Positions 6,450 through 55,973 of a stretch of DNA of 64,000 nt are shown here, one piece after another (the stretch's first letter is position 1; every line of letters starts with the position of its first letter). The translations under genes and the position numbers were made by a program. Below the pieces are notes generated by a model, which made no database searches, was not told the origin of the DNA, and saw only the letters and a program-made list of their open reading frames with translations. Source of the stretch: Leptolyngbyaceae cyanobacterium. Its GTDB lineage: Bacteria > Cyanobacteriota > Cyanobacteriia > Phormidesmidales > Phormidesmidaceae. The DNA lies in contig CBDHHL010000032.1 of the NCBI GenBank assembly GCA_965263355.1, positions 3,072,001 to 3,136,000 of the forward strand, in the 5' to 3' direction.

Positions 6450-6480
6450 CAGACTATTAATTTTTTATTGTTTGATTCTA

Positions 6481-7033: not shown

Positions 7034-7061
7034 AACCACTCCTAACAAAGCAGGAGTGGTT
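7034..7061 (-). terminator. Intrinsic terminator after htpX
   Basis: AACCACTCCT-N8-AGGAGTGGTT followed by a T-run on the minus strand. Confidence 0.65.
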
Positions 7062-7123
7062 CAACAAGATGTTTTGATTGTCTCCTCTTACTTTTGAAGG
7101 AAGGAAGGAAGAGGAATTTGTCG

Positions 7124-33381: not shown

Positions 33382-33427
33382 GTTGGCTATTAGCTCAGTA
33401 CTATTGAGCTAGTAATTTCTGAGTAAT

Positions 33428-33456
33428 GGGAGCTGAGTACTCAGCTCCCTGTTTTT
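33428..33456 (+). terminator. Intrinsic terminator of rbcLXS
   Basis: GGGAGCTGAGTACTCAGCTCCC perfect palindrome followed by TGTTTTT. Confidence 0.75.
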
Positions 33457-33509
33457 GTATTAGGATATGCCTGCGAACGAGCTCCAGTGCTGCATGTGGT
33501 TTTGCTGAC

Positions 33510-34652: not shown

Positions 34653-34654
34653 TT

Positions 34655-35308
34655 TTGAGCAGTCGTCACTATAAACCCAAGAAACTAATTGTTGAAGGAT
34701 ATCAAGATAAAAGAGTGATACCAGAATTAATTGAGGCCAATGGTATCAATTGGGGTGAGACACGTGAAGAAGCCATTGTTGATATTGAGGTTTATGGTAG
34801 CGATCAATTTATTGATTCAGCTATTATTTCTACCGAGCTAAAGGCGTCGGGATTATTAGCATTAGGTTTGATAGTGGATGCTGACAGTAATCTCAATAAT
34901 CGTTGGCAAAGCATCAAAAATGCCTGTTCTAAGAGCATTGCTGATATGCCAGACACCTTGCCTGAGACGGGCTTAATCCACACTACACAATCAGGAGTCA
35001 AGTTGGGTGGATGGATTATGCCAGACAACCAAGCACAGGGAATGCTTGAAACTTTTCTTAGCTATTTAGTGCCGGATGTCAGTGAATTCCTATGGCAGTA
35101 TGCGCAGGAAGTGACTCAAGTAGCTAAACAAAAGGGAGCAGCCTTTATTGATGAGCACTTTGACAAAGCCAATATTTACACTTGGCTGGCATGGCAATGT
35201 CCACCAGGACGTCAACTACACAATGCTGTGATGGAGAAAATTCTGGATTCGACGCATCCAAAGGCACAAGCGTTTGTCAATTGGTTCAAGCAGTTGTACG
35301 AACTTTAG
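34655..35308 (+). CDS. TOPRIM-fold protein (DUF3226-like)
   Basis: LIVEGYQD, GLIVDAD (DxD), WIMPDNQAQGMLETFL, DKANIYTWLAWQ; starts 2 nt after the ATPase stop. Confidence 0.78.
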   Translation: MSSRHYKPKKLIVEGYQDKRVIPELIEANGINWGETREEAIVDIEVYGSDQFIDSAIISTELKASGLLALGLIVDADSNLNNRWQSIKNACSKSIADMPDTLPETGLIHTTQSGVKLGGWIMPDNQAQGMLETFLSYLVPDVSEFLWQYAQEVTQVAKQKGAAFIDEHFDKANIYTWLAWQCPPGRQLHNAVMEKILDSTHPKAQAFVNWFKQLYEL

Positions 35309-39715: not shown

Positions 39716-41743
39716 ATGGTTGAGCTGTTTCAAACAATTCGTATTCTAATCGCCGATTGGTGGAAAGATTTTACGCTTCAGACGCGGTTAATGGCAGCGG
39801 CCACATTGGTTGTATCTCTAGTTATGAGCAGCCTGACATTTTGGGCCGTCAATACGATTCAGCTCGATGCCCGTTTGAATGACACTCGTTTTGGGCGTGA
39901 TCTAGGCCTGCTGTTAGCTGCCAACACCGCACCATTGGTCGAATCTCAACAGCTGGATGAACTGGCGCTATTTTCTCGACGTTTTATGGAAAGTACGTCG
40001 AGTATTCGCTATATGCTCTATGCCAATCCAGAAGGAAATATTTTTTTTGGTATCCCTTACTACTCTGGCTCAGCGGCCCAAAACTCGCTTACCTTGAGCC
40101 GGCGCATGCAGCTTCCAGAGAACTATGTTAATAATGTCGATTTGCCGATGGTGCGGCAACATCTTACACCAGCAGGGGAAGTGACCGATGTATTTGTACC
40201 CCTTAAAACAAGGGGTAATCAATATCTGGGGGTATTAGCCCTGGGCATTAATCCTAACCCAACGGTAGTAGCTTCCTCACACCTGACTCGTGATGTCACG
40301 ATTGCGGTATTTGTTTGTATTTGGGTGATGGTGATTTTAGGGGCGGTGTTTAATGCGCTGACAATTACTCAACCCATTAAAGAACTCCTGACTGGTGTGA
40401 AAAATATTGCTGCCGGTAATTTTAAGCAGCGGATTGATCTTTCTCGTGGTGGTGATGAGTTGGGTGAACTCATTCAGAGCTTTAACTATATGGCAGAGCG
40501 ACTTGAGCGCTATGAAGAACAAAATATTGAAGAATTAACTGCTGAGAAAGCAAAACTAGAACGGCTGGTTTCTACGATTGCCGATGGAGCAATTTTGATC
40601 GATGCCAACATGGAAGTGGTTTTGGCTAATACGGCAGCGAGCCGCATTTTTGGTTGGGATGTGCAGCTCCCTCCCGATGGCAACGTATTGAAGCATCTGC
40701 CCTCCGAGGTCAGGGTGCAAATGACCCGACCGCTTTATCAGGCGGCCCAAGGAGCTTCCTCTGAAAGCCAAGAGTTTCGTATTGCCTTGACTGAGCCTGT
40801 TAGCCGTACTATTCGCGTATTACTAAATTCTGTTTTGGACCAGTCAGGAGAAACCGTTAAAGGGATTGCGTTGACGATTCAGGATATCACCCGAGAAGTG
40901 GCTTTAAATGCGGCCAAAAGCCAATTTATTAGCAATATTTCCCATGAACTTCGGACACCTTTGTTTAATATCAAGTCGTTTATTGAAACCCTTTACGAAT
41001 ATGGTGAAGACTTGTCTGATCGTGAGCGTCAGGAGTTTTTGGAGACAGCGAACCATGAAACTGATCGACTGACGCGGTTAGTAAATGATGTTCTAGATTT
41101 ATCACGGTTGGAGTCTAATCGTCGCTATCAGTTCAATGCATTAGATATTCATCAACCCATTGAACAGATTCTGCGCACCTATCAACTCAATGCCAAGGAT
41201 AAGGGAATTGAGTTGATTCAAGAGATTGAGGTAGGACTCCCTCCCGTACGGGGGAACTACGATCTGATGTTGCAAGTATTTGGTAATTTAGTGGGCAACG
41301 GCCTAAAATTTTCCAGTGCGGGAGGCTGTGTTGCGATTCGAGCCTATCGAGCCCCCTCAATGGTTGATGATCACCCTGACTTTGCCGGTAATCATGTCCG
41401 CATTGAAATTGCAGATACGGGTATAGGCATTGCTCCTGAGGATCAAGATGCAATTTTTGATCGCTTCTATCGAGTCGAGAATCGGGTTCATACCCTTGAA
41501 GGCACTGGACTTGGGCTGTCTATTGTTAAAAATATTATCAATAAACACAGTAGCAAGATGTGCCTGGTCAGCGAAGTTGGGGTGGGCACGACATTTTGGT
41601 TTGACCTAGCTGTTTATGAAGCTCCCCTGGTTAAGGCTGAAGCAGAGGAGCTAAGGGCTGCTAAGGCTCACGGTTCTAACACTCATGGAGAGGGTGCGAT
41701 CGCACCTGTAGTTGTCCAATCTACACCACCGGAGTTAACCTAA
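39716..41743 (+). CDS. nblS: Sensor histidine kinase Hik33/NblS/DspA (TM-HAMP-PAS-HisKA-HATPase)
   Basis: FTLQTRLMAAATLVVSL, NDTRFGRDLGLLLA, SHELRTPLFNIKSF, G-boxes; adjacent to purD. Confidence 0.92.
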   Translation: MVELFQTIRILIADWWKDFTLQTRLMAAATLVVSLVMSSLTFWAVNTIQLDARLNDTRFGRDLGLLLAANTAPLVESQQLDELALFSRRFMESTSSIRYMLYANPEGNIFFGIPYYSGSAAQNSLTLSRRMQLPENYVNNVDLPMVRQHLTPAGEVTDVFVPLKTRGNQYLGVLALGINPNPTVVASSHLTRDVTIAVFVCIWVMVILGAVFNALTITQPIKELLTGVKNIAAGNFKQRIDLSRGGDELGELIQSFNYMAERLERYEEQNIEELTAEKAKLERLVSTIADGAILIDANMEVVLANTAASRIFGWDVQLPPDGNVLKHLPSEVRVQMTRPLYQAAQGASSESQEFRIALTEPVSRTIRVLLNSVLDQSGETVKGIALTIQDITREVALNAAKSQFISNISHELRTPLFNIKSFIETLYEYGEDLSDRERQEFLETANHETDRLTRLVNDVLDLSRLESNRRYQFNALDIHQPIEQILRTYQLNAKDKGIELIQEIEVGLPPVRGNYDLMLQVFGNLVGNGLKFSSAGGCVAIRAYRAPSMVDDHPDFAGNHVRIEIADTGIGIAPEDQDAIFDRFYRVENRVHTLEGTGLGLSIVKNIINKHSSKMCLVSEVGVGTTFWFDLAVYEAPLVKAEAEELRAAKAHGSNTHGEGAIAPVVVQSTPPELT

Positions 41744-42117
41744 CCCACCAACTTGGTAACGATGCTCCAAGCACCTTGCTCACGAGTAGAAAAGTCTGAT
41801 GGATTAAGCCATTTAGGATCAATAGCCACTGGTTTAATGACCAAGCTTTCTGCAATTGCTCTACCATCCAAGCCTAAGAATTGGGCGTATCGTTTGAGAA
41901 ATCCCTTGACGTAGATTGCTTCAGGGAGCTGTAACCAGTTACCTGTTTCAATAGCTCGCAATTGCTGCTGTTGAATGTGAGTCCGCGTTGCAACGTGTTG
42001 TAAGGATAACCCTTGGCGTGTGCGAATAGCCTGCAAATATCGACCCACTTTCATCAGCTGATGCTCTCGACCGTTCCCACTATGGGAGTTCTCTATTGTT
42101 TTAGGAAAAACGCTCAT
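41740..42117 (-). CDS. Stand-alone Xre/RodZ-like helix-turn-helix protein
   Basis: GRYLQAIRTRQGLSL...LRAIETG...LPEAIYVKGFLKRYAQFLGLD; no TM segment or RodZ C-terminal domain. Confidence 0.82.
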   Translation of the reverse strand: MSVFPKTIENSHSGNGREHQLMKVGRYLQAIRTRQGLSLQHVATRTHIQQQQLRAIETGNWLQLPEAIYVKGFLKRYAQFLGLDGRAIAESLVIKPVAIDPKWLNPSDFSTREQGAWSIVTKLVG

Positions 42118-42529
42118 TACTTTACAAATAGATACAACACACCTTTGTGTAGTCTATTGATCCCACTTTTCTGAATCAAGCAGGTCTTACCCTCTCTTTG
42201 CGAAGGGGATTGTACTGAGTTTGGTCTGCAGCCATACCATTCAGGCTATGAGTAGCCTCATCATCAAGTGATAAATGGCTGATTTGGTAGAGCTTGAGGT
42301 GTTAATTGAGAAAAAAGGTCGACCCCAGTTTTTGTCTTCAATACAGGCTTCATAAGCGTAAATACGTACATCTATGTGTGAAAAACATGACAAAAGTGCT
42401 CTGCATATACGTACATTTTTGAATGACTGTTAATACTCATCATATTAAGGACCCTATCAATCTGACCCAAATTACGAAAAATTACCCCATAATCGAACGT
42501 AAGAGAGGAGTGGGCAGGAATTCTTGTCT

Positions 42530-44974
42530 ATGGGGTTTGTTATGGCCTTTTCTCCCTCTTTGTTGCAACAACTGCTGCGACGGCACGTTTCGCATCTTTG
42601 GCAAAGTCGTCGTTTACCACAATTAGCCCAGCGTACCTGCGAGCTATATTTTGATAGCCAAGGCCCTCGGGCTCAAACCCATTGCCGAGAGGTTTTACAA
42701 ACTCAGGTAAAGCTTGATGCCCAAAGTTTACAACGGTTTTTTCGGACAGAAATAGGTGACTTATTATTAGAGCGATTAGCTCAGTTGATTGAGTTACCTC
42801 ACGATAGTGCTGGACGTCAGGCCTTAATTAAGCGGCTTACCAAGGTGGATCAGCTCTCGATTATGAGTGTGTTGTCTCACATTGCAGGCAATTTGCGGAC
42901 TGATCGTCTATTAGAAACGGCTCAACAAATTAATCTGCTGCTCCAGACAACAGATCAACTGCTGGCTTTACTTAAGACACTGATGGAGCAGGAAGCTATT
43001 GACCAGAGCGGGCCTGCCACGGATCTTCGGTTGCCTGGTTCTTGGGGAATACGTCAGCGAATCTTGCGCTTGCATCGACAATCGTTGCAGCCATTTCAAG
43101 TATTTCTTTACGAACCCTTGGGAGAGATTTCTGAGCCAGTGTCTGTGGTGGTCATTTCCCATGGCTTAGCCGCTAACCCCCAGGCCATGGCTCCCTATGC
43201 TAGGCATCTTGCCTCCCATGGGTATCTAGTGGCTGTTCCCCAACATCCTGGTAGCGATAATCATCACCTGCATAATTTACTGGTGGGGACTGTTGATGAG
43301 ATATTTTCGCTACAAGAGTTTTTTGACCGTCCCCATGACATTAGTATTCTTTTGGATGAACTAGAACGGCGAAATGAACGTGAGTATGACGGGTATCTCA
43401 ATTTAAATGATGTGGGTATTTTGGGGGAATCATTTGGTGGTTATACGGCGTTGGCTCTCGCCGGTGCCACTATGGATTTTGACGCGTTGGCTCAACGTTG
43501 CGAAGGCATCTCTGACAGTTTGAACGTGTCGTTGTTGCTGCAGTGCCGAGCCCTATCTCTATCGCCGATGGTCAAGCCGCCGCTTCAGGATGCTCGAATT
43601 AAGGCGATTTTTATTGTTGACCCCATTGGTAGTGGTCTGTTTGGGGGCGATGGACTGGCGTCTGTGACGATTCCAACGATGCTCGCCACTGGCAGTCAGG
43701 ATAAAATAGCGCCGTTGGCGCTGGAACCGCTTCAGATGTTCCCCCAGCTTGCCAGCCGCGATCGCTTTTTAGCCGTTATTCGGGGTAAATCCCATATTCA
43801 TGATCTTAGTAAATTACTCTCTTCTTTGAAACTTGCAACTGTTAGTGAGCTGCCAAACTTAACCCTTTCACCGCCTATCATTGAGAGCTATCTTTGTGGG
43901 TTGAGTGGACTATTTTTTCAGCAATACTTACGACGATCTGACCGGTGCCATGCAACATTTCCCGCCTATGCCCAATCTATTAGTCAAGCACCCTATGACT
44001 TGTCTCTTATTAGTGCAAAATCGGATTATGCTCTACAGCCTGTGCTCAATGATTTTCAGCAGAGGTTAGCTCAGCTGAAATGGCAGACTATGACGGTTCA
44101 GTATCAAGATGGCTTTTTTGCAGCGGCTGATGGTTTAAGCCTCTATTATCAAAGCTGGTTGCCCACCTCAATGGTTAAGGCAACAGTGATTTTAGTCCAT
44201 GGGTTAGGTGGGCATAGCAGTCTCTTTCAAAATGTTGTCAAGGCCCTATTGCCTGAAGAATATGCGCTTTATGCCTATGATCTAAGAGGGCATGGGCGTT
44301 CCCCAGGACAGCGTGGTTATATTCATCGTTGGTCAGATTATCGTAACGACTTGGCGTATTTAATTGCCATGGTTAAGCACCAACACCCGATGGTCCCGTG
44401 TTTTTTGCTAGGGCATAGTTTAGGCAGCATTATTGCTCTGGAGTATGCACTGCACAGACGTAGGCATTTGGGTGAACCCAGCGCTATCGCTTATCTGAAC
44501 GTTAACGGTATTGTGGCTGCAGCGCCACCCTTTGGTAACCATGCCACCACTGATATGCGTTTAAAGATTGGGCAGCTATTGTCGTTAAGCTGGCCCCGAT
44601 TTTCTATGTCTTTGGGATTAAAGCATATTCCGCCATCGCGAGATCGATCTATCGTCTTGGCCTATGCCCATGACCCCCTTAGACATCAACGGGGTACAGC
44701 TCGCTTAGCGACAGAATTTTTAAAGACAATCAAAACCCTACGCACCCATAGTAACTATTTGACAGTGCCTATTTTGATGCTCCATGGAACGGAAGATCAG
44801 GTCGCTGACCTTGTTGTTAGCCATGATTTTTTTCAAGCCTTACCTCAGGCGAATAAAAGATTTATTAAATATCAGGGAGCTTATCACGAACTTTATAACG
44901 AAACTAATCAAGCAGAGATCATGATGGATATTAATCATTGGCTAGGGGAGCAACTTAAAATAGTTGATGGTTGA
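42530..44974 (+). CDS. Tandem alpha/beta-hydrolase fusion (dienelactone-hydrolase/lipase-like + lysophospholipase/monoglyceride-lipase-like)
   Basis: Domain 1: VVISHGL, HPGS, GESFGG. Domain 2 (from M at 44090): LVHGLG, YDLRGHGRS, GHSLG, HGTED, YHELYNE. Confidence 0.85.
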   Translation: MGFVMAFSPSLLQQLLRRHVSHLWQSRRLPQLAQRTCELYFDSQGPRAQTHCREVLQTQVKLDAQSLQRFFRTEIGDLLLERLAQLIELPHDSAGRQALIKRLTKVDQLSIMSVLSHIAGNLRTDRLLETAQQINLLLQTTDQLLALLKTLMEQEAIDQSGPATDLRLPGSWGIRQRILRLHRQSLQPFQVFLYEPLGEISEPVSVVVISHGLAANPQAMAPYARHLASHGYLVAVPQHPGSDNHHLHNLLVGTVDEIFSLQEFFDRPHDISILLDELERRNEREYDGYLNLNDVGILGESFGGYTALALAGATMDFDALAQRCEGISDSLNVSLLLQCRALSLSPMVKPPLQDARIKAIFIVDPIGSGLFGGDGLASVTIPTMLATGSQDKIAPLALEPLQMFPQLASRDRFLAVIRGKSHIHDLSKLLSSLKLATVSELPNLTLSPPIIESYLCGLSGLFFQQYLRRSDRCHATFPAYAQSISQAPYDLSLISAKSDYALQPVLNDFQQRLAQLKWQTMTVQYQDGFFAAADGLSLYYQSWLPTSMVKATVILVHGLGGHSSLFQNVVKALLPEEYALYAYDLRGHGRSPGQRGYIHRWSDYRNDLAYLIAMVKHQHPMVPCFLLGHSLGSIIALEYALHRRRHLGEPSAIAYLNVNGIVAAAPPFGNHATTDMRLKIGQLLSLSWPRFSMSLGLKHIPPSRDRSIVLAYAHDPLRHQRGTARLATEFLKTIKTLRTHSNYLTVPILMLHGTEDQVADLVVSHDFFQALPQANKRFIKYQGAYHELYNETNQAEIMMDINHWLGEQLKIVDG

Positions 44975-45425
44975 TTTTCAAGAACTATTGGTTTAGGTCT
45001 TAATATTACAGGCATATTAAGACAACCCCTGATTGCTAGGTGATCCCACTATAATGAATGTATTAGAAATTCAGCTTTAATTGCTAGGCTTATCCAAAAT
45101 TACTAAGTTTTTGGCAACTATTTTGCCTGGTTAAATAGCTGGATTCTTAACTATGAGTCGTGATTTATCTGGCTGTTTTTTATTGTTATCTAATTGGTTT
45201 TTGCTGCTAATAGTTTGCGACTTTGAGCCCGTCAACAGTTCCCGGAATAGACTCTTTTCTCGTGTTTTCTGTATAGATAATACGGTTTGAGCTACGGGTT
45301 TAGGTGTGAGCTTGGGTCTATATCTATCTTTAACCACTCCTCTCTTTGCTGGGTAGAGCTGTAGGCCTTTTGAATGTGACTAGTCTGTATCTTGAGGGAG
45401 CGCACTCAAGAGTGCTCTTAAGAAG

Positions 45426-47444
45426 ATGAGTGATCGATGTCTCCTTAGTTGCCCGCTGTATGTCGCGCCAACAACTAAGGGCTCTGTAGAGTTAAATCAC
45501 ACCATTCCTGATTTGTTGGATATGGGGTGTGCGTATGATTATGTGCCTAGGCTATATCAGTGGACTCTCCATGGCTGGGAGGCTTATAACTATGGTGAAT
45601 TTCGGACTGCAGCAGAAGAGGTGGCATTGGGATTGCAGACGGAAGGCTTGACGGGTGGTGGGGAGCTGCCACGCATTGGTCTATTGTTAGATAGCGATAT
45701 CCATTGGGCAATGGTGGATATGGGCAGTGCGATCGCACGCCTGGTCACTGTACCTCTCGATCGCGGACAACCCACATCTACCATTGGCTGGATTGTTGCC
45801 GATGCTGGTCTAAAAGCACTGGTTGTTTCTAATTGGAAAATATTAAAACGCGTTTATCACCATGTTCAGCAGGTTGAGCTAATTATTGTTGTTGAGGATG
45901 CCCCACCCCCTGTCTGGGCGTTAGGGGAGGCTACCATTAAACCCCTAGTAGCTATTCGCCATCAAGGGCGTTTGATCCATACAGCATCAGCAATTCAGGC
46001 ATTGAAAGCGCAGCTCCATCCCGATGATTTAGCTACCATTGTTTACAATTCTGATGCTGGTGGCCGTGTCAAAGGGGCTATGCTCAGCCATCGGAACTTG
46101 ACCGGCAATATTTGGGCGGCGTTTAGTAGCATGCCTGGACTGTTGCCGGGGACACCAGAAGTAGCCCTATCGTTTTTACCCCTTAATCATATTTTTGCAA
46201 GGGCTTTTCTCTACGGTCATTTTGGCTTTGGTCACCATATCTATTTTTCATCTCCAAAGCGGGTCTTTTCCCATTTAGCGACGGTTAAACCGACAATTTT
46301 TATTACGGTGCCACGGTTACTTGAGAAAGTCTATGAGCGAGTTAATGCTCTCCGACAACAATCCTATGGACTCAACCACTACTGGTTGACCTGGGGGTGG
46401 CATCTGGCCCACCGTGAGAGGTTGCCCCGTCTTCTGCATTGGGTGCTGGGGCACACCGTGTTTAATCATTTGCGTCGAGCATTTGGAGGCAGCATTCGCT
46501 ATCTGCTATGTGGGGGGGCAGCCCTCCGGCCTGAGATTATGACCTTTTTTAATGGTGTCGGTATTCCGGTAAAGCAGGGCTATGGGCTGACGGAGACCAG
46601 TTCTGTGCTGAGCTATACCCGTGATCGCTGGCTGCGTTCCGGTACTGTAGGGGCACCAATTCCTGGGGTGGAAATGCGGCTGGCGGCAGATGGTGAAATC
46701 TTAGTGCACAGTCCCTATACCATGGCTGGATATCACCATGATCCAGCGGCTACAGATGCTGTGATTGATGCTGACGGCTGGTTCCATACCGGAGACTGGG
46801 GAGAATTTTCTGTGGATGGACTCCTGACACTCCATGGTTGTAAAAAAGATCTCTTTAAGTTGTCTACCGGTAAATATGTGGCTCCAACACCAATTGAAGC
46901 CCAATTGGAAAAGTCTCCCATTGTCAAGCAAGCTTTGTTAGTAGGACCTGGACAGAAGTTTTGTGGGGTGTTGATTGTGCCTGGGGTTGAAAGCCTCAGG
47001 TCAATACTTCAAGCTAGGGGCGAGAGCTTGGCAGACTGGCAGTTGTCGTTAACGACTGTGTTAGGAGATGTGGAGAGGGATGCTAACACATTAGCGCTGG
47101 TGCGAACTGACACGTTAGCGCTGGTGCGAACTGACACGTCAGCGCTGGTGCGAACTGACACGTCAGCGCTGGTGCGAACGCAATACCAAACCCTGATCGA
47201 TCACCTCAATGAACAATTGCCAAGTTGGTCAACTATTAAGCGGTTTGTACTGATTAACGAAAAGCCTGATGCTACAGGTAGCCGTCAGCAGCGTTACCAG
47301 GCCTATGCCCAGGAGATTAAGGTCTTGTATCAGGAGGCTGAGCTTGGGCATCAGGGACCGCCGAGAAAGTTATCTCGTTTATATCAACGGTGGAAGCGTT
47401 TAAGGCCCTTTAATTGGCGTAACCGTCCAACCAATGTGGCGTGA
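45426..47444 (+). CDS. Long-chain fatty-acid--CoA ligase homologue with degenerate motifs
   Basis: SFLPLNH, VPRLLEK, CGGAAL, QGYGLTE, GWFHTGD, KLSTGKYVAP; P-loop reads YNSDAGGRVKG. Confidence 0.85.
   Translation: MSDRCLLSCPLYVAPTTKGSVELNHTIPDLLDMGCAYDYVPRLYQWTLHGWEAYNYGEFRTAAEEVALGLQTEGLTGGGELPRIGLLLDSDIHWAMVDMGSAIARLVTVPLDRGQPTSTIGWIVADAGLKALVVSNWKILKRVYHHVQQVELIIVVEDAPPPVWALGEATIKPLVAIRHQGRLIHTASAIQALKAQLHPDDLATIVYNSDAGGRVKGAMLSHRNLTGNIWAAFSSMPGLLPGTPEVALSFLPLNHIFARAFLYGHFGFGHHIYFSSPKRVFSHLATVKPTIFITVPRLLEKVYERVNALRQQSYGLNHYWLTWGWHLAHRERLPRLLHWVLGHTVFNHLRRAFGGSIRYLLCGGAALRPEIMTFFNGVGIPVKQGYGLTETSSVLSYTRDRWLRSGTVGAPIPGVEMRLAADGEILVHSPYTMAGYHHDPAATDAVIDADGWFHTGDWGEFSVDGLLTLHGCKKDLFKLSTGKYVAPTPIEAQLEKSPIVKQALLVGPGQKFCGVLIVPGVESLRSILQARGESLADWQLSLTTVLGDVERDANTLALVRTDTLALVRTDTSALVRTDTSALVRTQYQTLIDHLNEQLPSWSTIKRFVLINEKPDATGSRQQRYQAYAQEIKVLYQEAELGHQGPPRKLSRLYQRWKRLRPFNWRNRPTNVA
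47086..47179 (+). repeat. 24-bp coding tandem repeat, about 4 copies (DT[L/S]ALVRT)
   Basis: ACAC[G/A]T[T/C]AGCGCTGGTGCGAACTG units read directly. Confidence 0.95.
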
Positions 47445-47530
47445 TTGCGTTTGGCATTTTAGGGGCTTGTGTGATGTTTTTGGGTAGGTGTTGCCTGCCT
47501 TCTGTTTACCGTCTTTAGAGGAGATCGATC

Positions 47531-49903
47531 ATGACTTTTCTTCCCTTGAAAACAGTAGCCGTGCTGGGTGCTGGTGTTATGGGTACTCAAATTGCAGCCC
47601 ATTTGGCGAATGCGGGATTACAGGTGTTACTGATGGATTTGCCTGCACCTGAAGGTAATAAAAATGCAGTTGTGGAAGGTGCCTTTAAGAAGGCTCAAAA
47701 GACCTCACCACCGATCCTATTTTCTCCTGATGTGGCCCACCGGATTGAGTTAGGCAACTACCATGAACACTTTGCCCGTTTGAGCCAGGTAGATTGGGTG
47801 ATTGAAGCTGTGATTGAGCGATTGGATGTTAAGCAGCAGCTGATGGCTCGCCTCGAACAGGTGGTCCGTTCTGACGCTGTGATTTCTACCAATACTAGTG
47901 GGTTGCCCATTGCGCAGATTGTCGATGGACGGTCCTTAGACTTTCGACGGCGGTTTTTAGGTACGCACTTTTTTAACCCACCCCGATATTTGAAACTGTT
48001 GGAGCTAATTCCGACTGACGAGACTGCTCTGGAGATAATGCAACGGGTGGCATGGTTTGGTCGTCACTACTTAGGCAAAGGAGTAGTGGTAGCCAAGGAT
48101 ACCCCCAATTTTATTGCTAACCGCATTGGTCTGTTTGCGACATTTCTAGGTATTCATGCGCTAATCAACGAAGGCTATTCCATTGAAGAGATTGATACAT
48201 TGACGGGCACATTAGTGGGTCGGCCAAAATCGGCAACGTTTAGGACAGCTGATCTCGTTGGCTTGGATACCTTGCGTCATGTGGCTGAAAATATTTATCC
48301 GGCTATTTCCCACGATGAACAACGGGAAATGTTTAAGCTGCCCCCACTGTTAAAAACGTTGGTGGAAACTGGCTCGCGAGGTGCGAAGTCTGGCCAAGGG
48401 TTCTATAAAAAGGTGGGTAAGCAGATTCTCTCTGTGAATCCTAAAACCTTTGCCTATGAAGTGCCCTGTCCACCAGATTTACCTGGACTTGAAACTGTCT
48501 CTCAAATACCTGAACTGATTGCCCGAGTTAGGGAACTGTATACCCTGGAGGGTAGGGCGGGAGACTTCTTCCGAAAAACTACCCTTGCCCTCTTAAGTTA
48601 CAGTGCCTGTCGCTTGCCCGAAATTGCTGATAGTCCCGTGGATGTGGACCGAGCTATGCGTTGGGGATTTGGCTGGCAAATGGGACCGTTTGAGCTGTGG
48701 GATGCTATTGGGTTCCATCGTGTGCTGTATGACATGCAGGCAGTACACCTGTGTGTGCCTGATTGGGTGACTGACATGGCGGCTACAGGAGAATCTCACT
48801 TCTATCGGAGTACCCAGGGGGTGCCCAGTAGTTTGTTGATGGCTGATGCGGTACTTGGACCCATGGGGCAACAAATGATAGAACAGCCTCAAAATGAGAT
48901 TTATCTGCCGTTGATTAAAACAACAAATAGGACGCTATGGGAGAACTCGGAAGCGGCACTATTGGACATGGGAAATGGGGTGGTACTCTATGAGTTTCGG
49001 TCTAAAGGCAATACCCTCAGTACAACTGTGGTGGATGGCTTACAGACGGTACTGGATATGTTGTCCCAGGACGACCAGTATCGAGGGTTAGTGATTGGTA
49101 ATAACAGCGATCATTTCTGTGGTGGGGCTAATCTTGTGGAAATGGTCACGGCGGCCCAAACCGATAATTGGCAGATGATTGCCGATTTGTTGGTGACATT
49201 TCAGCGGCTGTTACAGCGGATTCGTTACTTCCATAAACCGATTGTGGCGGCTGTCCAAGGTCGAGTATTAGGGGGGGGCTGTGAGTTAGTCATGGCCTGT
49301 CCCCATGTGGTGGCGGCGGCTGAAAGTTATATCGGACTGGTGGAGCTAAGTGTTGGTCTGATTCCTGGGGCTACGGGCACAACTCGTATGGCTAAGTGGG
49401 CAGCTCAGCAGGCTATGAGTGGCACTGCTCAGCATATTCAACCGTTCTTAAATCATGTGTTTAAGACGGTGGCGACAGCGACTGTCTCGGGTAGTGCTTT
49501 TGAGGCGATTGAGTTGGGCTTTTTGCCTCCTAATGCTCACATTGTTATGAACAATGACCAGCGACTGTATGTGGCGAAAGAAGAGGTGCTGTGTCTTGAT
49601 CGGGTGGGCTATCGTCCTCCTGCCCATGATAGTTTTTGGGTGCTAGGTGAGCAGGGTCGGGCGGTGTTGGATCATATGGCGTATACCCTGCAACAGGGGG
49701 GATTTGCCAGTGACTATGATCGGTTCTTGGCAGGGCAGCTGGCCTATGTGATGACGGGAGGAAAATTGACGGCTGCGGCGCGGGTGTCTGAGGAGTATTT
49801 GTTGAGGTTGGAGCAGGCGGTGTTCTTGCCGTTGTTGCAACAGAAGAAGACACAGGAGAGGATTGCGCATTTGTTGAAGACCAAGAAGCCGTTGCGAAAT
49901 TGA
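47531..49903 (+). CDS. fadN: 3-hydroxyacyl-CoA dehydrogenase / enoyl-CoA hydratase (FadN-type domain order)
   Basis: GAGVMG, STNTSG, GTHFFNPPRYLKLLE, PNFIANRIG; crotonase FCGGANL, GGGCE, GLVELSVGLIP; ends KPLRN. Confidence 0.92.
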   Translation: MTFLPLKTVAVLGAGVMGTQIAAHLANAGLQVLLMDLPAPEGNKNAVVEGAFKKAQKTSPPILFSPDVAHRIELGNYHEHFARLSQVDWVIEAVIERLDVKQQLMARLEQVVRSDAVISTNTSGLPIAQIVDGRSLDFRRRFLGTHFFNPPRYLKLLELIPTDETALEIMQRVAWFGRHYLGKGVVVAKDTPNFIANRIGLFATFLGIHALINEGYSIEEIDTLTGTLVGRPKSATFRTADLVGLDTLRHVAENIYPAISHDEQREMFKLPPLLKTLVETGSRGAKSGQGFYKKVGKQILSVNPKTFAYEVPCPPDLPGLETVSQIPELIARVRELYTLEGRAGDFFRKTTLALLSYSACRLPEIADSPVDVDRAMRWGFGWQMGPFELWDAIGFHRVLYDMQAVHLCVPDWVTDMAATGESHFYRSTQGVPSSLLMADAVLGPMGQQMIEQPQNEIYLPLIKTTNRTLWENSEAALLDMGNGVVLYEFRSKGNTLSTTVVDGLQTVLDMLSQDDQYRGLVIGNNSDHFCGGANLVEMVTAAQTDNWQMIADLLVTFQRLLQRIRYFHKPIVAAVQGRVLGGGCELVMACPHVVAAAESYIGLVELSVGLIPGATGTTRMAKWAAQQAMSGTAQHIQPFLNHVFKTVATATVSGSAFEAIELGFLPPNAHIVMNNDQRLYVAKEEVLCLDRVGYRPPAHDSFWVLGEQGRAVLDHMAYTLQQGGFASDYDRFLAGQLAYVMTGGKLTAAARVSEEYLLRLEQAVFLPLLQQKKTQERIAHLLKTKKPLRN

Positions 49904-49975
49904 GGTTTTTGGGGCGGTTGGATTTGTTGGTTTTTGGTTTTTGGGGCGGTTGGATTTGTTGGGTTTTGGTTTTTG
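49904..49975. repeat. 32-bp G/T-rich tandem repeat (about 2.2 copies), followed by a REP-like hairpin at 49989-50016
   Basis: GGTTTTTGGGGCGGTTGGATTTGTTGG[T/G]TTTT twice; AGGCTGGGTT...AACCCAACCT. Confidence 0.75.
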
Positions 49976-50067
49976 CCTGGGTTGAAAGAGGCTGGGTTTG
50001 TGGTGCAACCCAACCTATGGGTTTAATTGTCCCCTTGTTGTTATTGCTTGTTTACGTGGAGATCATT

Positions 50068-51249
50068 ATGCGAAGTACGTATATTGTTGCAAGTGTAAGA
50101 ACGGCGGTTGGCAAGGCTCCACGTGGGGCACTGCGGCATATGCGGCCTGATGATATGGGGGCAGCGGTGGTGCAGGGGGCAATGAAGCGGCTGCCTGCGT
50201 TACAGCTAGATCAGATCGAGGATGTGATCATGGGCTGTGCCATGCCTGAGGCAGAACAGGGCTATAACCTGGGCCGGGTGATTGCCCATCGGGCTGGGTT
50301 GCCCCCATCGGTGCCAGGGATGACGGTAAATCGCTTATGTTCGTCTGGTCTGCAAACCATTGCCATGGCACACCAGGCCATTAGTCTGGGGCAGGCAGAG
50401 GTGATAATCGCTGGGGGTGTGGAGTCCATGAGCTTGATTCCTATGGGGGGTGATCGGTGGAGCCCGAATCCAGCCATGATGGTTGAGATGCCCCAGATAT
50501 ATACCTCCATGGGGTTAACGGCGGAAAATGTGGCAGAACAGTTTGACATTGCACGGGCAGATCAGGATGTGTTTGCCTTGCGATCGCACCAAAAGGCCCT
50601 CAACGCCATTGCGGCGGGTCACTTCGCCGATGAAATTGTGGGTCTCACCGTAACGGATACGGTCTACATAGACGGTGAGACCCACACCCAGAAGACAGTC
50701 TTCGAGGTGGATGAAGGCCCTCGACCAGATACCAGTCTGGACGCATTAGCAGGGTTGCCACCGGTCTTCCGCCGTGGCGGGAGTGTCACTGCCGGTAACT
50801 CCTCCCAGATGTCTGATGGGGCTGCCGCTGCAATTCTCATGAGCGAAGACAAAGTCAGAGAATTAAACCTTACTCCCATGGCTCGTCTGCTGGGATTTGC
50901 TGTGGCTGGCGTGCCCCCACAGATTATGGGTATTGGTCCAGTAGACGCGGTACCCAAGGTGCTGAAGCAGGTCGGGTTGAGCCTGGATGACATCGGTTTG
51001 ATTGAGTTAAATGAAGCCTTTGCAGCTCAAAGTCTGGCGGTAATTCGTAAGTTGGGGTTGAACCCGGACATTATTAACGTGAACGGCGGTGCGATCGCCC
51101 TGGGCCATCCTCTGGGTTGCAGTGGTGCAAAACTGACTGCCACGTTACTCCATGCCATGAAACGTCATCATGTCCGCTATGGCATGGTCACCATGTGTGT
51201 GGGAGGTGGCATGGGTGCCGCCGGGGTGTTTGAAAATTTGTTGCTCTAA
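50068..51249 (+). CDS. fadA: Acetyl-CoA C-acyltransferase (3-ketoacyl-CoA thiolase)
   Basis: ATG 50068 with [32 protein letters not shown]. Confidence 0.93.
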
Positions 51250-51354
51250 TTTAGGTAAAGTGACAAAAAAAGACTAGGCTTGGAAAGTAAGGGTGACGTT
51301 TGTTTTCAGCTACACTTCAACAAATTTCAACAAGATTATAAATTTTTCTGCATA

Positions 51355-51392
51355 GACCCGTAGGGGTGTTGTATGTAATGCCCCTACGGGTC
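51355..51392. repeat. GTAG REP-like palindrome (variant of the 38227 copy)
   Basis: GACCCGTAGGGG-TGTTGTATGTAATG-CCCCTACGGGTC. Confidence 0.7.
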
Positions 51393-51395
51393 GGG

Positions 51396-53849
51396 ATGAT
51401 TATTATGGCTCTCTTGACTGTTGGTTTAATCTTTGGCTTGCTGGGACTGTTCGTTGGCTTGGCATATATTAATGTCCCGATGTTGGCGTGGTTTGCCTAC
51501 GCAGCGTTAGTGTTAGGCATCGCCCATGCCCCCCTATGGCTATGGGGATTATTGGGCTGTGTGGCCATTGTGTTTAATGTGCCGTTTATTCGTCAGGTGG
51601 TGATTACGGCCCCCATTGTTAAATCAATTCAACAACTTAAGTTGTTGCCAGCCATCTCAGAAACAGAACGAGCGGCGATTGAAGCCGGTACTGTATGGGT
51701 CGATGGGGAGCTTTTTTCTGGTCAACCCAACTTCCAACGAATTTTGGCAGAGCCTTATCCCGCCCTGAATCCGGAGGAGCAAGCCTTTGTGGATGGCCCT
51801 GTGGAGCAGGTGTGTCGCATGGCCACAGACTGGGAGATTCATCAGCGTAAAGATTTACCCCCCGATGTGTGGGCCTATCTCAGACAAGAACGCTTTTTTG
51901 GCATGATGATTCCGCCAGAGTATGACGGTCTTGGGTTTTCGAATACGGCCTACAGTGCGGTGATGACTAAGCTGGCATCACGCTCGTTTACCCACACGGC
52001 GACGGTCGGTGTGACCAACTCCCTCGGACCCGCAAAACTACTTCTGCGCTATGGCACCAATGAGCAAAAGCAGCGTTACCTTCCTAAACTCGCGACCGGT
52101 GAAGAAATGCCATGCTTTGCCCTGACGGAACCGACGGCGGGTTCGGATGCGGCCAGTTTGCAGTCGAGCGGGACGGTGTTTAAGGGGCAGGACGGTGAGC
52201 TATATCTAAGGTTGAACTGGCAGAAACGCTATATTACGCTGGGTGCGATCGCAACCCTAATCGGTCTGGCTGTCCGCCTCTACGATCCCGATAATCTTCT
52301 AGGCAAGGGCACAGATGTTGGCATTACCTGTGTATTGGTTCCCGCTGACACTCCTGGTGTGCAATTGGGGCGTCGCCATGACCCCATGGGTGTGCCCTTC
52401 TATAATTCACCCATTGCCGGTCGCAATGTAGTTTTGTCTGCCTGCCAGATCATCGGCGGTGTAGCCCAAGCGGGACAGGGTTGGACCATGCTGATGCAAA
52501 GTCTCGCCGCTGGTCGAGGCATTAGCTTCCCGGCAACTGCGACCGGTGTTGCCAAATTAATCTCTCGTGTGACCAGTGCCTATAGTGTGGTGCGCGAACA
52601 GTTTGGGTTATCTATCGGTAAATTTGAAGGCATTGAAGAACCCCTGGCGCGCATTGGGGGCCTCACCTATCTGATGGATGCGGTACGTTTGTATACCTGT
52701 GGTGCCGTCGATCAAGGCGAACAACCTGCAGTGGTATCTGCCATTGCCAAGTATCAATTTACTGAATTATCCCGTCAGTTGATCAATCACGGCATGGATA
52801 TTCTCGGTGGTGCTGGCATCTGTCGTGGTCCCCGCAATCTGTTGGCCAATATTTATACAGCTACACCCATTCCAATCACAGTAGAGGGAGCTAATATTCT
52901 CACCCGCAGTTTGATTATTTATGGTCAAGGCGCAATCCGCTGTCATGGTTACATTGTGGATGAAATTGCCGCGTTAGAAGACAATAATGTTGCTGCATTT
53001 GACCATGCATTGTGGCGACATATGGGGCTGGTGTTGCGCAATTGGGCGCGGGCAAAAGTCTTGGGTTTGACCCATGGTCGTCTGGCGAAAGCACCGGTAC
53101 GAGGAGAAACGGCCCGCTACTATCAGAAGCTAGCCTGGGCCTCTGCCACATTTGCCGCCCTATCAGACTTAGCCATGCTCACCTACGGCGGTCGCCTCAA
53201 ACGCCATGAGAAAATTACGGGGCGCTTTGCCGATATGCTCTCTTGGATGTATTTAGCAACCGCTACGCTTCGACGGTTTGAGGCAGAAGGTCGTCGAGAC
53301 GATGATTTGCCCTTGGTTCATTGGGCGATGAATCATAGTCTGGGACAGATTCAGCAGGCATTAGAAGGTCTATTGGTGAACCTAGATATTCCTGTTTTAG
53401 GAGGGCTGATGCGGGCAATTACATTGCCGTGGTTCCGGTTAAATCCCCTGGGTGTGATGCCTACAGATGCCCAAGGCCATGCAGTGGCACAGCTATTGCA
53501 ATCTCCTGATGGGCGTAATCACGTTACTGCAGGTTTGCATGTGCCCACGGATGCAGAACAGGCCCTTGGCCGTTTGGAGCGCGCCTATCAGTTATCGATT
53601 GTGGCGATGCCTGTATTTAAGATAATCAAAACTGCATTGCGCAATGGGGAGCTGAAGATTATGCCTCCTGTGGGTCGGGTGGAAGCAGCGCTAAGGGCTG
53701 GAGTGATTACGAGCGCAGAATCTGACCTAGCAATCGCTGCAGAGCGGGCGCAGTTGGATGCGATTCAGGTGGACTCGTTTACATTGGTGGATTATCAACG
53801 CATTGGCAGGGAGTATATCGAGGAAGAGATTACGGAAACTGAATCATGA
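51396..53849 (+). CDS. fadE: Membrane-anchored acyl-CoA dehydrogenase, FadE type
   Basis: N-terminal TM helices; ISETERAAIEAG, NSLGP, CFALTEPTAGSDA, REQFGLSIGKFEGI, ITVEGANILTR (catalytic Glu); DUF1974-like C-terminus. Confidence 0.93.
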   Translation: MIIMALLTVGLIFGLLGLFVGLAYINVPMLAWFAYAALVLGIAHAPLWLWGLLGCVAIVFNVPFIRQVVITAPIVKSIQQLKLLPAISETERAAIEAGTVWVDGELFSGQPNFQRILAEPYPALNPEEQAFVDGPVEQVCRMATDWEIHQRKDLPPDVWAYLRQERFFGMMIPPEYDGLGFSNTAYSAVMTKLASRSFTHTATVGVTNSLGPAKLLLRYGTNEQKQRYLPKLATGEEMPCFALTEPTAGSDAASLQSSGTVFKGQDGELYLRLNWQKRYITLGAIATLIGLAVRLYDPDNLLGKGTDVGITCVLVPADTPGVQLGRRHDPMGVPFYNSPIAGRNVVLSACQIIGGVAQAGQGWTMLMQSLAAGRGISFPATATGVAKLISRVTSAYSVVREQFGLSIGKFEGIEEPLARIGGLTYLMDAVRLYTCGAVDQGEQPAVVSAIAKYQFTELSRQLINHGMDILGGAGICRGPRNLLANIYTATPIPITVEGANILTRSLIIYGQGAIRCHGYIVDEIAALEDNNVAAFDHALWRHMGLVLRNWARAKVLGLTHGRLAKAPVRGETARYYQKLAWASATFAALSDLAMLTYGGRLKRHEKITGRFADMLSWMYLATATLRRFEAEGRRDDDLPLVHWAMNHSLGQIQQALEGLLVNLDIPVLGGLMRAITLPWFRLNPLGVMPTDAQGHAVAQLLQSPDGRNHVTAGLHVPTDAEQALGRLERAYQLSIVAMPVFKIIKTALRNGELKIMPPVGRVEAALRAGVITSAESDLAIAAERAQLDAIQVDSFTLVDYQRIGREYIEEEITETES

Positions 53850-54333
53850 GGCTTGATTGTGGTAAATGCGTAGTATGCCACTGCGATTGCTGTAGTCAGG
53901 ATGAAATAAATCTTTAAGGGGGGCTCATCCTGACTACTTTTTATATTGTTACTGGTGTCGGGCGCGTCGGGTTCAACACGTGTGCTCATCAAGTGCGTGC
54001 GGCAATTGAGCACATTATCCTTGGCAACAATTCCTTTCCTTCAACGTGGACTGATGCTCTAATGCGCCACCGAAAACTCTATATTGATTGAGTTCGTGAT
54101 TTGCAACTTGGATAGCAAATGTAAATGCTCCTGTATCTTGAGTTAAGGAACGAAATCTGACAATTCCAGAAGGTCTTCTGCTCCTAGCCTACTTTGCCTG
54201 AAATGCCATATGGCGGATAATACTTTGTAGTAGTAGTATCGGACTATAGAACTAGGATAGGTTTGCTAGATGCTAAGCTAGGAAAATAGGAAGGCAAAAA
54301 AATAGGGGACGATGCATCCCCTACAAACAATAA

Positions 54334-54477
54334 ATGTTGCCTTCAGTCTACCAAACCATCTGCCGTACACATCTGAGCGAACAGCAGTATCTAACGCTAG
54401 AGCTGGTGTTACTTTTGATACAAGCCCATCGAGAAGTCACCCTTGCTACCTTAGCCAGTCTATTTCCTTGTGTCTGA
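54334..54477 (+). mobile_element. N-terminal fragment of a cyanobacterial IS4-family transposase
   Basis: Not in track: MLPSVYQTICRTHLSEQQYLTLELVLLLIQAHREVTLATLASLFPCV*, resembling from memory the MLP..YQ..L...L...QYLTL start of these transposases; hairpin at 54303-54323 upstream. Confidence 0.55.
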
Positions 54478-55973
54478 TGTGTTTTAGATGACTGTCTGGG
54501 CATTGGCAGCTCGTCAATAGTACTGAGAACCCATTCAAAGAGATCAGGAAACGGCTGTCCAAAGAGTCGTTGAGCCGCAGTGGTGCCATCAGCTCGTTTA
54601 AGGTCGAAATTATGAATGATGGTGAGCACCTTCAAGGACTGATGAGAAAAGCCTCGATTGACATGATGGCGTTGCGACAAATAGCCATTGCGCCCTTCGA
54701 CGGCAGAGGAAGTGCGTTGATACTTGGCACACATCCACTGGCACCACTGCACCCAGTGTTGGCGTTGCGTGTCATCCATCTGTAGTGTCATGGTGTGGGC
54801 CATCAGCTGATCATAGGCATCGCTAGCGGCCTGTTGATAGCGAGATTTGAGCTGAGGCTTTCGAGTTTTATCAGCGTGTTGAGACCAATAGACCCAGGGT
54901 AAAAGGGCTGTCAGTACCCAATTTTGGACGTCCATCTCCTGGGTTTCTGCCGCTAGTGCCTGCATCACCCAGTGCCACCAGGCATGAATGCCGGTGGCGA
55001 ACTTAGGGATCTGAGCTTGAAAGGTGGCAATCGCTTTTTGAGTCGTATCGCCCCCATAGAGATGCGCCAGTTCGTTGAGTGTGCTCAAGGGGACCTCCAG
55101 CCGCGTCGTTAAGTCCTCAAAGAATTGCCATTGGGCGGTTTCAAGGGTGAAGGGGTGGACCGTTTGGCTAATGTCTGCCAACGCACAATGATAGGTTTGC
55201 TGGTCTTGTTCGAGCTGTTGATGTTGCTGCGTGAGCGTCTCGAGTTGTGAGGTCAAGGTCTGTTGTTTAGACGGGTCTGTTGTTTTGTTTAATTGGTGGT
55301 GGAGTTTGTCTGCTTGTTTTTCAAGCTGAGCAAGTTGACGCCCCAGCGCACTCCCGATAGGACGACCTAATGCCCGCATCGCATGGAACAGATCCGCAAC
55401 ACTGACGGTACCCAGACCGCAGAGAGCTAGCTTCACCAAGGCACGGGCACCATCACTGACCATAAAGTGGCACTGCCATTGAGTCTGATTCCACCAGGCC
55501 TCAACCTGTTTGAGCCAAGTGTCATAACAGCGGTTCTCACATTCGATTTCTGTGAAAATAAACCCACTGGCTAACTCCACCAGCACCAGAATCGGCAATC
55601 CAAAAAAGGTTTCATCGCCGCCGAGGCAGATACCGGGTTTGTTGGCGGGTTGGCAATGCTCGGCTTGCGCCACTTCGTAGGCCACGATAGCTTGCTGGAG
55701 ACGGTGTTTGAGTTGACGTAGGGCACTCGCAGAACTGCCCACATGAGTATCGAGGTGCACTGCCTTGAAGAACGTTGATAAACTTTCGGCTCCCACCCCT
55801 TGTTTGATGCCAAAGTGGTAGATCACCCCCACCACCAGACGTAACAGCCAAGCTGACCCGGCGGCAGTTTCCCACAGACCTGATTCTGGATACTGATTGC
55901 GACGGGCAATGGCTTGCTGATGTCGATGCACACTGCTTTTGCTGATCCCAATGAGGTGTTTATTTATACACAC
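54348..55973 (-). mobile_element. Putative transposase (DUF6399-like), probably 5'-truncated; its 3' end reads through into the IS4 fragment
   Basis: HTH SKSSVHRH, GGDETFF, MVSDGA, DLFH, RTSSAVEGRNG, IHNFDLKRADGTTAAQRLFG (DDE-like acidic motifs). Confidence 0.7.

Follow-up and report, generated by a model that had tools for sequence, protein, structure and literature searches.

Can a cyanobacterium oxidize fatty acids? Cyanobacteria are generally held to lack beta-oxidation, a view stated in the original prediction on the DNA studied here and echoed in the accessible part of a 2023 review, according to which such gene sets were "never reported in cyanobacteria" (PMC10114076). The question is raised by a stretch of 64,000 nucleotides from a Leptolyngbyaceae cyanobacterium (assembly GCA_965263355.1, contig CBDHHL010000032.1, positions 3,072,001 to 3,136,000), hereafter the window. 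The original prediction placed in it five co-oriented genes and read them as an acquired lipid-catabolic module leading from lipid release through activation to the complete cycle. The five genes are indeed there, within 42524-53849. The cluster is a real, resident lipid-catabolic operon and a clade-wide cyanobacterial trait. Judged from the sequences, its five genes form a native conserved operon, probably for beta-oxidizing fatty acids drawn from the cell's own acyl lipids. The first and last parts of the proposed route stand, the lipase and the cycle enzymes being intact; activation is doubtful, the ligase homologue having lost three of its motifs (P-loop, A8 Arg and A10 Lys).

The cycle enzymes

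Five reading frames, all of them open, lie on the + strand in the same orientation (42524-44974, 45426-47444, 47531-49903, 49900-51249 and 51366-53849). Their products, in this order, are a lipase with two hydrolase domains, a homologue of acyl-CoA ligases, FadN, a thiolase and a FadE of the E. coli type with a membrane anchor. The genes are given below, with lengths in amino acids (aa).

42524..44974, + strand: three-part lipase, 816 aa; by Pfam, DUF1400 (aa 40-119) followed by two alpha/beta-hydrolase domains
45426..47444, + strand: acyl-CoA-ligase homologue of the ANL superfamily, 672 aa; PF00501 at 184 bits, PF23562 (AMP-binding_C_3) at 51 bits
47531..49903, + strand: FadN, bifunctional 3-hydroxyacyl-CoA dehydrogenase (HADH)/enoyl-CoA hydratase, 790 aa; Pfam and NCBIfam
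50068..51249, + strand: 3-ketoacyl-CoA thiolase, 393 aa; TIGR01930 at 465 bits (cut-off 240)
51366..53849, + strand: long FadE acyl-CoA dehydrogenase (ACAD) of the E. coli type, 827 aa; NF007000 at 1011 bits (cut-off 600), PF09317 (ACDH_C) at 309 bits

The catalytic motifs originally named for the HADH, crotonase, thiolase and FadE are all present and align to solved enzymes (6tnm, 8gqg and ACAD9). FadN has its HADH domains (3HCDH_N/3HCDH, residues 8-293) at the N-terminus and the enoyl-CoA hydratase domain (ECH, 489-628) at the C-terminus. In an alignment with E. coli FadB (6tnm), the His/Glu pair of the HADH (GTHFFNP, LLELI) and the two Glu residues of the crotonase (GGGCEL, GLVEL) fall on catalytic positions. 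The thiolase aligns end to end with solved 8gqg (E 7e-102) and has the Cys-His-Cys set, including MCVGGG. Its true start is at 50068, where homology begins at the encoded Met; the longer open frame from 49900 exists because it reads through a repeat in the spacer.

49904..49984, no strand: 32-nt G/T-rich tandem repeat, 2.5 copies (TRF), in the fadN-thiolase spacer; makes a spurious N-terminal extension of the thiolase

Comparison of FadE with ACAD9 and VLCAD locates the catalytic Glu, ITVEGAN aligning with LIFEGTN of ACAD9, and residues 1-85 are hydrophobic (hydropathy >1.6), giving an N-terminal anchor of ~85 aa. The marks of a fadN-fadA-fadE operon are thus found together: the catalytic residues of FadN, thiolase and ACAD, in contiguous, co-oriented and conserved genes. 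A working beta-oxidation cycle is predicted from these sequences with a confidence that runs from fair to good.

Each of the known systems is similar in part. E. coli FadE (NF038187, PRK09463) shares with the window protein the N, M and C domains of ACAD, the ACDH_C domain and the hydrophobic N-terminus, and the FadE_coli model gives 868 bits. However, with the E. coli-specific model the window FadE falls short of the cut-off (1300 bits), the nearest sequences found outside the cyanobacteria share 45-56% identity with it, and it occurs in a type of genome without any homologue of the electron-transfer flavoprotein (ETF). The Firmicutes fadN-fadA-fadE operon (yusL-yusK-yusJ in Bacillus subtilis) has the same domain order in FadN and the same gene order, fadN-thiolase-ACAD; FadN of Bacillus/Priestia aligns over its full length with 41% identity. 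Unlike Bacillus, the window has a long dehydrogenase of the E. coli type with ACDH_C and an anchor (the Bacillus FadE model NF058590, with its cut-off at 600 bits, gives 106), and its operon also incorporates a lipase and a degenerate ligase. The pairing of an E. coli-type FadE with FadN had been taken for a special mosaic. It is not, as two gammaproteobacterial loci, L055 (a Wenzhouxiangellaceae metagenome-assembled genome) and L056, also have fadE-fadN-thiolase, with the three cycle enzymes adjacent and an E. coli-type FadE beside the FadN type. They differ from the window in that fadE comes first, no lipase or ligase adjoins, and identities are 38-55%.

Residence and spread of the operon

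The DNA of the operon looks like that of its host. The octamer HIP1 (GCGATCGC) has 27 sites in the window versus 0.65 in shuffles; five fall within the operon, in keeping with the 18% of the window that it occupies, and these are the same five sites that had been listed before. The GC content of the operon genes is 0.45-0.52, that of the window 0.43-0.52. Host genes in the window include rbcL-rbcX-rbcS, gltB, infC, purD and nblS (a cyanobacterial kinase, 1129 bits). Contigs from three public runs of one study were used as a test of the assembly, not of independence; these runs are probably the sample from which the window was assembled. In run X1, an 8242-bp contig spans 38905-47146 (purD, nblS, the HTH gene described below and the lipase, into the ligase) with zero mismatches. 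Another contig covers 51581-54413 and thus leads from fadE to beyond the stop codon. At 47146/47150, exactly where the ligase gene has a repeat, each of the three contig sets is broken.

47086..47179, + strand: 24-nt in-frame tandem repeat, 3.9 copies (LALVRTDT x4; TRF), in the C-terminal domain of the ligase homologue

Long residence rather than contamination, as first proposed, agrees with the HIP1 density, the bridging contigs and the synteny in relatives. For the further claim that the module was acquired, no date can be given and no donor named, the non-cyanobacterial outgroup consisting of six sequences chosen by peptide patterns. Recent horizontal acquisition by this genome was considered and rejected, with GC content, HIP1 density and clade-wide synteny telling against it.

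The spread of the operon was followed by a FadE scan of one genome per prokaryote species. Of 66 FadE loci, 57 are titled cyanobacterial, 4 "uncultured bacterium" and 5 belong to other phyla; 60 (the 57 and 3 of the "uncultured bacterium" loci) are in a cyanobacterial clade. By title, the carriers include Leptothoe, Leptolyngbya sp. PCC 7375, Adonisia, Nodosilinea, Leptothermofonsia, Myxacorys and Acaryochloris, as well as Pleurocapsales/Xenococcaceae, Pseudanabaena, Tumidithrix and Elainellales. A quick maximum-likelihood tree of FadE joins the 54 long cyanobacterial rows (3 "uncultured") in one clade with an SH-aLRT of 100, and the six outgroup rows fall outside it. The Pleurocapsales are monophyletic within the clade, and the window lies among marine Leptothoe/"Leptolyngbya" (best match L013, 90%). 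Of the 60 clade loci, 40 have the full order ligase-fadN-thiolase-fadE, 19 are cut short by the end of a contig, and one, L016, lacks the genes of the block that would precede fadE. A lipase gene stands beside the block in 31 of the 60 and is absent, for example, from L001 and several Pleurocapsales. The ACDH_C domain, which is specific to FadE, was found in 13 of 401 genomes of an even phylum sample, which may include non-photosynthetic classes. The operon is widespread in a minority of cyanobacteria, in several orders. The synteny and phylogeny check that the original prediction asked for thus yields a conserved block and a single FadE clade, and shows that the cluster is no peculiarity of this genome.

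Substitution rates point to constraint. Against the 8 closest relatives, the nonsynonymous rate (dN) lies at 0.06-0.11 in the three cycle genes, at 0.15-0.29 in the ligase gene and at 0.13-0.26 in that of the lipase, and the synonymous rate (dS) is at least 1, so all five genes are constrained; since dS is saturated, dN/dS ratios are rough.

Two kinds of unusual loci were found. L016, from an uncultured Leptolyngbya metagenome-assembled genome, has fadE (5569-7977) directly after purD-nblS-HTH and no lipase, ligase, fadN or thiolase in its 16.5 kb, and its FadE is on a branch of 0.35 versus 0.05 for the sister; it looks like a remnant of a reduced operon. L080 (NZ_CP064927.1, 106099-120468) is a copy of the operon on a 210-kb plasmid of Acaryochloris marina S15, of the conjugative type (MOBF, MPF_T). 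Its annotation includes the ligase and the acyl-CoA dehydrogenase, whereas no gene is listed for fadN, which is matched as three separate pieces. The operon is also matched by two further Acaryochloris plasmids. Plasmids are a possible route of its spread.

Could the cluster be a decaying relic, a biosynthetic (reverse) pathway, or an artefact of assembly or contamination? Decay might be read into the degenerate ligase motifs, into the lone fadE of L016 on its long branch and into the three pieces of fadN on the Acaryochloris plasmid. However, the five frames are open, the catalytic residues are intact in four of the proteins, and dN is far below dS. FadE-type FAD acyl-CoA dehydrogenases are oxidative enzymes without a role in a reductive pathway, and there is no phaC in the cluster. 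Against an artefact stand the host HIP1 density, the bridging contigs and the nblS synteny in relatives. Together, these explanations are extremely improbable.

Lipase, ligase homologue and the entry step

The lipase has two hydrolase domains behind DUF1400. The N-terminal one is a cutinase/PAF-AH-like alpha/beta hydrolase with its Ser in GESFG and no more than a weak cutinase match (E 0.008). The C-terminal one is monoacylglycerol-lipase-like (Hydrolase_4, PF12146, 238 bits) with the GHSLG Ser, an Asp and a His, and ~290 of its residues align to solved monoacylglycerol lipases (E ~3e-34 to 1e-29). The Ser (GxSxG), Asp and His are kept in both hydrolase domains of the 12 orthologues that share the two-domain form. 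In 27 aligned sequences the HGLG of the C-domain is invariant, and conservation of the Ser in GHSLG, the Asp and the His is 90% or more, up to invariance. One two-domain lipase, in L024 (3275-4129), has a C-domain without the nucleophile and the His (GQGVG, ARCAL), its N-domain retaining GQSFG. The closest known relatives are the Rv0183-type lipases of M. tuberculosis (6eic/7p0y) and human MGLL (3jw8), which align to the C-domain with the Ser-Asp-His triad; unlike them, the cyanobacterial domain sits behind DUF1400 and a second, cutinase-like hydrolase, and in four cyanobacterial relatives it is joined directly to the ligase homologue.

The ligase homologue is the odd member of the operon. Its motifs go by the usual names A3 (phosphate binding), A5 (YGxTE) and A7 (TGD; both adenosine/ribose contacts), A8 (the Arg of GRxKD or DRKKD) and A10 (the catalytic Lys). 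The window protein has YNSDAGGRVKG as its P-loop, GCKKD at A8 and no A10 Lys; A5 (YGLTE) and A7 (TGD) are kept. Aligned to the A-domains of carboxylic acid reductases (CARs), it has VYNSDAGGRVKGAM at the P-loop position where CARs have IYTSGSTGTPKGAM. Motifs were counted in 40 operon ligases, the window's included, and in 3 control ligases from the same genomes, with [ST][ST]G[ST][ST]GxPKG as the canonical A3 pattern. Not one of the 40 has the canonical P-loop; PKG is found within the P-loop in 11, mostly Pleurocapsales, as G-x-T-G-x-PKG. The A8 Arg is likewise missing from all 40, replaced by C, S, Q, M, L, V, T or I. An A10 Lys is retained in ~7 (Pleurocapsales types), and the A10 loop is deleted in the clade of the window. 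TGD of A7 is present in 40/40, and the A5 Glu in 26, with Gln in the other 14. All motifs are canonical in the 3 controls, two of which are paralogues of 662 and 673 aa and probably acyl-ACP synthetases (Aas); the canonical paralogues L071 and L072 could not be named Aas from NCBIfam, which has no Aas-specific model. The P-loop varies freely among orthologues (at the Lys of PKG, for example, K, L, Q, V, T and S all occur), and such variation has the look of a constraint that was lost, not of a motif newly gained. When 1.84 billion representatives were searched, ~20 of the best 150 matches had the degenerate form, and at 33-40% identity canonical YTSGTTGxPKG/TDRKKD ligases followed. This makes the family a small side branch of the ordinary long-chain acyl-CoA synthetases. 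The protein-atlas family of the ligase is a generic "AMP-dependent synthetase".

Because the P-loop, the A8 Arg and the A10 Lys are lost, the ligase homologue is predicted, on balance, to be non-adenylating. There is a precedent. In platensimycin biosynthesis the ANL reaction is naturally split between PtmA1 and PtmA2, PtmA2 being, in a review that cites Wang et al. 2018, a non-adenylating acyl-CoA ligase homologue (PMC6594144); it is an ANL-fold protein that makes a CoA thioester without adenylating. The cyanobacterial operon differs in having no dedicated gene for an adenylating partner, the neighbour of the ligase homologue being a lipase.

The structure model of the ligase homologue is a complete two-domain ANL fold (pLDDT 83.2, pTM 0.82), of low confidence in the repeat insert and the tail; the LALVRTDT repeat has a pLDDT <50 at residues 548-576 and is absent from all 26 aligned orthologues. 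The best structural matches of the model are CAR A-domains, CoA ligases and luciferases. As modelled, the protein is not decaying. Its domain arrangement is nearer to the thioester-forming luciferase structure 4g37 (rmsd 5.0, TMq 0.64) than to the adenylate-forming 4g36 (rmsd 10.8, TMq 0.53), which hints at the thioester-forming conformation; the conformation of a model is not evidence of activity.

Gene fusions connect the ligase homologue with the lipase. In four Pseudanabaena/Tumidithrix loci and in the representative P0012, the lipase domain and the ligase homologue are one protein of 1021-1024 aa, which suggests that the two act together. A predicted complex of the ligase homologue with the C-terminal lipase domain scored 0.00 in a run without controls, which counts neither for nor against an interaction. 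P0033 (962 aa) is a patatin-like phospholipase fused to a canonical ligase relative, so that fusion alone demands no unusual chemistry. P0018 (842 aa) is a canonical ligase relative fused to a TetR regulator.

The pathway may alternatively be canonical throughout, the ligase being an ATP-dependent long-chain acyl-CoA synthetase with a divergent P-loop that the lipase feeds with free fatty acid. The confident model of a complete two-domain enzyme agrees with this, as do the adenosine contacts A5 YGLTE and A7 TGD, kept in the window and all close relatives, and a protein sequence that has changed far less than silent sites. The 11 of 40 orthologues with G-x-T-G-x-PKG and the ~7 with an A10 Lys also fit, and P0033 shows that joining a lipase to a ligase needs no exotic chemistry. 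However, the P-loop is no new conserved variant, being freely variable; the A8 Arg is absent in 40/40 and the A10 loop deleted in the window's clade; and paralogous ligases in the same genomes retain every motif. With these losses a fully canonical pathway is rather unlikely.

Electrons, acetyl-CoA and physiological use

With a non-adenylating ligase homologue, the following route is proposed for beta-oxidation of the cell's own lipids. The lipase would free, or hand over, acyl chains from lyso- or monoacyl lipids, and these would reach CoA through the ligase homologue, which has most likely been left with nothing but the half-reaction that forms the CoA thioester, or with a carrier role. In each round, the acyl-CoA would then be shortened by two carbons through FadE, FadN and the thiolase. 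NADH would go to the respiratory chain, and the electrons of FadE may pass directly to the membrane quinone pool without ETF. Acetyl-CoA would enter TCA-type reactions or lipid synthesis, with no net gluconeogenesis. The physiological use, suggested by published data on a relative, may be membrane-lipid turnover when light energy is short.

A bolder form of this route joins an ATP-free or split entry to ETF-free delivery of FadE electrons to the plastoquinone pool. In the ATP-free variant, the lipase and a thioesterification-only ANL protein, fused in Pseudanabaenaceae, would move a lipid-bound acyl group to CoA; in the split variant, an acyl-adenylate would be borrowed from the acyl-ACP synthetase. 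With either entry, the degradation of thylakoid lipids would feed straight into the photosynthetic/respiratory electron chain when energy is short. This combination is unlikely, though not far-fetched.

The relative is Chlorogloeopsis fritschii PCC 9212, and through it the operon is already in print, in passing. Ho et al. 2019, in the accessible portion of their text, term UYEDRAFT_05553-05556 beta-oxidation genes (PMC6424891). Far-red light raised the transcripts of 05553 (ACAD) 22-fold, 05554 (thiolase) 19-fold, 05555 (HADH) 21-fold, 05556 (acyl-CoA synthetase) 10-fold and 05557 (lysophospholipase) 7.8-fold, and induction of UYEDRAFT_05553-05557 was higher still in rfp mutants (PMC6424891). 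It coincided with repressed lipid synthesis and loss of thylakoid membrane (PMC6424891). The likeness to the window lies in the same five gene types in the same order, as far as the annotations given there go; the lipase is annotated as a single lysophospholipase, whereas that of the window is three-part and of 816 aa. Ligase motifs, ETF and the conflict with "no beta-oxidation" are not discussed in that portion of the paper (PMC6424891).

Two other reports, each in its accessible part, touch on the gene set. Beck et al. 2018 describe a co-occurrence module with ACAD and HADH "around" thiolase (PMC5862535). Figueiredo et al. 2021 found fadB in none of 129 KEGG cyanobacteria and fadE, fadN and fadA missing from "most", and concluded that the pathway is absent (PMC8252387). 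FadN replaces FadB, and the minority left in that survey would therefore be carriers of this type of operon. Keyword searches of open-access text found no description of the motifs of the operon ligase.

Substrates other than ordinary membrane fatty acids were weighed, namely acyl-CoAs that are branched-chain or derived from amino acids, lipids that are stored or taken up from the environment or a host, and secondary-metabolite acyl tails. Record titles mark many carriers as benthic, mat-forming or sponge-associated, the lipase is missing from some loci (L001, several Pleurocapsales), and large carrier genomes have further short ACADs, all of which would suit them. However, the long membrane-bound FadE is the long-chain fatty-acyl enzyme of E. 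coli. In 31 of 60 loci the block has a monoacylglycerol-lipase-like gene at its side, in 4 loci this gene is joined to that of the ligase, and the induction in C. fritschii, in the text available, accompanies repression of lipid synthesis and thylakoid membrane loss. That the operon degrades such substrates instead is quite improbable.

Several points weigh against beta-oxidation of the cell's own lipids, beside the saturated dS and the shared origin of contigs and window. An entry enzyme without adenylation motifs leaves the supply of acyl-CoA unexplained, and the pathway could be starved of substrate. Genomes with loci L007, L022, L012, L041 and L006 were searched together with 14 control genomes; with the 64-kb window, in which domain searches bear out the earlier statement that no ETF or glyoxylate-shunt gene occurs, these five relatives are the scope of the absences. 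ETF (PF01012) was found in none of the five carriers and in 10 of the 14 controls, and ETF-QO (PF05187) in none and in 3 of 14, respectively. Malate synthase was found in 0/5 carriers, with control genomes positive for it and for isocitrate lyase. A lone 23.8-bit match to isocitrate lyase in one of the five carriers, short and in a 311-aa frame, was rejected as too weak for a glyoxylate shunt. Because no ETF, ETF-QO or glyoxylate shunt was found, what takes up the electrons of FadE and where acetyl-CoA goes are reached by inference. The C. fritschii genes are matched by annotation and order alone, not by sequence. Labelling in three other cyanobacteria, their operon status unchecked, gave persistent label, consistent with no beta-oxidation in the accessible part of that study (PMC8252387), and open-access text searched by keyword yielded no paper with a biochemical test, such as one of chain shortening, in a cyanobacterial carrier. 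FadE is the sole acyl-CoA dehydrogenase in 2 of the 5 carrier genomes. Acetyl-CoA cannot support net gluconeogenesis; what the cell would gain is probably energy together with reducing power and not carbon skeletons.

Three further features surround the genes of the operon.

41740..42117, - strand: small HTH_25 gene (RodZ-like/XRE-like; PF13413, 82.8 bits), divergent from the operon
44975..45425, no strand: AT-rich lipase-ligase spacer, 451 bp, seen in the sequence; a single 10-nt inverted repeat
53892..53937, no strand: hairpin (perfect arms of 13 nt, loop of 20 nt) 43 nt past the fadE stop; not part of a repeated family in the window

The HTH_25 gene is found between nblS and the operon in 13 related loci (including L001, L002, L005-L008 and L012-L016) at 53-75% identity; it is a conserved neighbour in the close clade only and a possible, putative regulator of the operon. 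Three of 16 representative loci have an Lrp/AsnC regulator gene immediately upstream, on the strand of the operon: L041 (Tumidithrix, 2264-2848), L051 (Pseudanabaena, 2280-2846) and L039 (FACHB-502, 1952-2623). No conserved partner (transporter, thioesterase, ETF) was found beyond the block in the 16 representative loci, where the flanks are otherwise unrelated, lineage-specific housekeeping genes (Ycf4, CCB2/4, OpcA, GST and others). The lipase-ligase spacer may hold a putative internal promoter; the promoter scan gave 8 promoter-like sites versus 17 in shuffles, and terminators were no commoner than chance. Just two short inverted repeats were found in the intergenic stretches. The host-type REP palindromes of the original prediction were not borne out as a repeat family: there is the one hairpin after fadE, its 13-mer not repeated in the window, and it may mark the end of the operon. 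Directly downstream, a DUF6399 gene (54348-55973, - strand) is probably multi-copy, because its depth is 2-3x that of the flanks and contigs carry 5-8 variant letters each; contigs break at both its ends, and it is possibly mobile.

Elsewhere, an OLD/AbiEii-like ATPase gene (AAA_15/AAA_21, 33426-35308) lies right after rbcL-rbcX-rbcS, with a DUF3226 gene 3 bases on; the two may be a putative defence pair in an unusual place. A protein of 851 aa (389-2944, - strand) combines a cyclic-nucleotide-binding domain, an AAA+ core of the sigma-54-activator type and 4Fe-4S (Fer4_5), which is unusual for a cyanobacterium. In Nodosilinea sp. P-1105 (L017, 3-2447), an ORF upstream of the operon has a TcA C-terminal TcB-binding domain (Tc-toxin-complex-like) and is unrelated to the operon.

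Reviews and engineering papers assume that cyanobacteria cannot degrade fatty acids, and this premise underlies isotope labelling for natural-product discovery as well as strains for free-fatty-acid production. The degenerate ligase could be a second natural case of split or ATP-independent acyl-CoA formation, and the absence of ETF raises the long-open question of the electron acceptor of E. coli-type FadE. With a conserved, inducible operon in minority lineages, several of them in culture collections, the burning of fatty acids by cyanobacteria becomes directly testable, and the premise should not be extended to the taxa that carry the operon.

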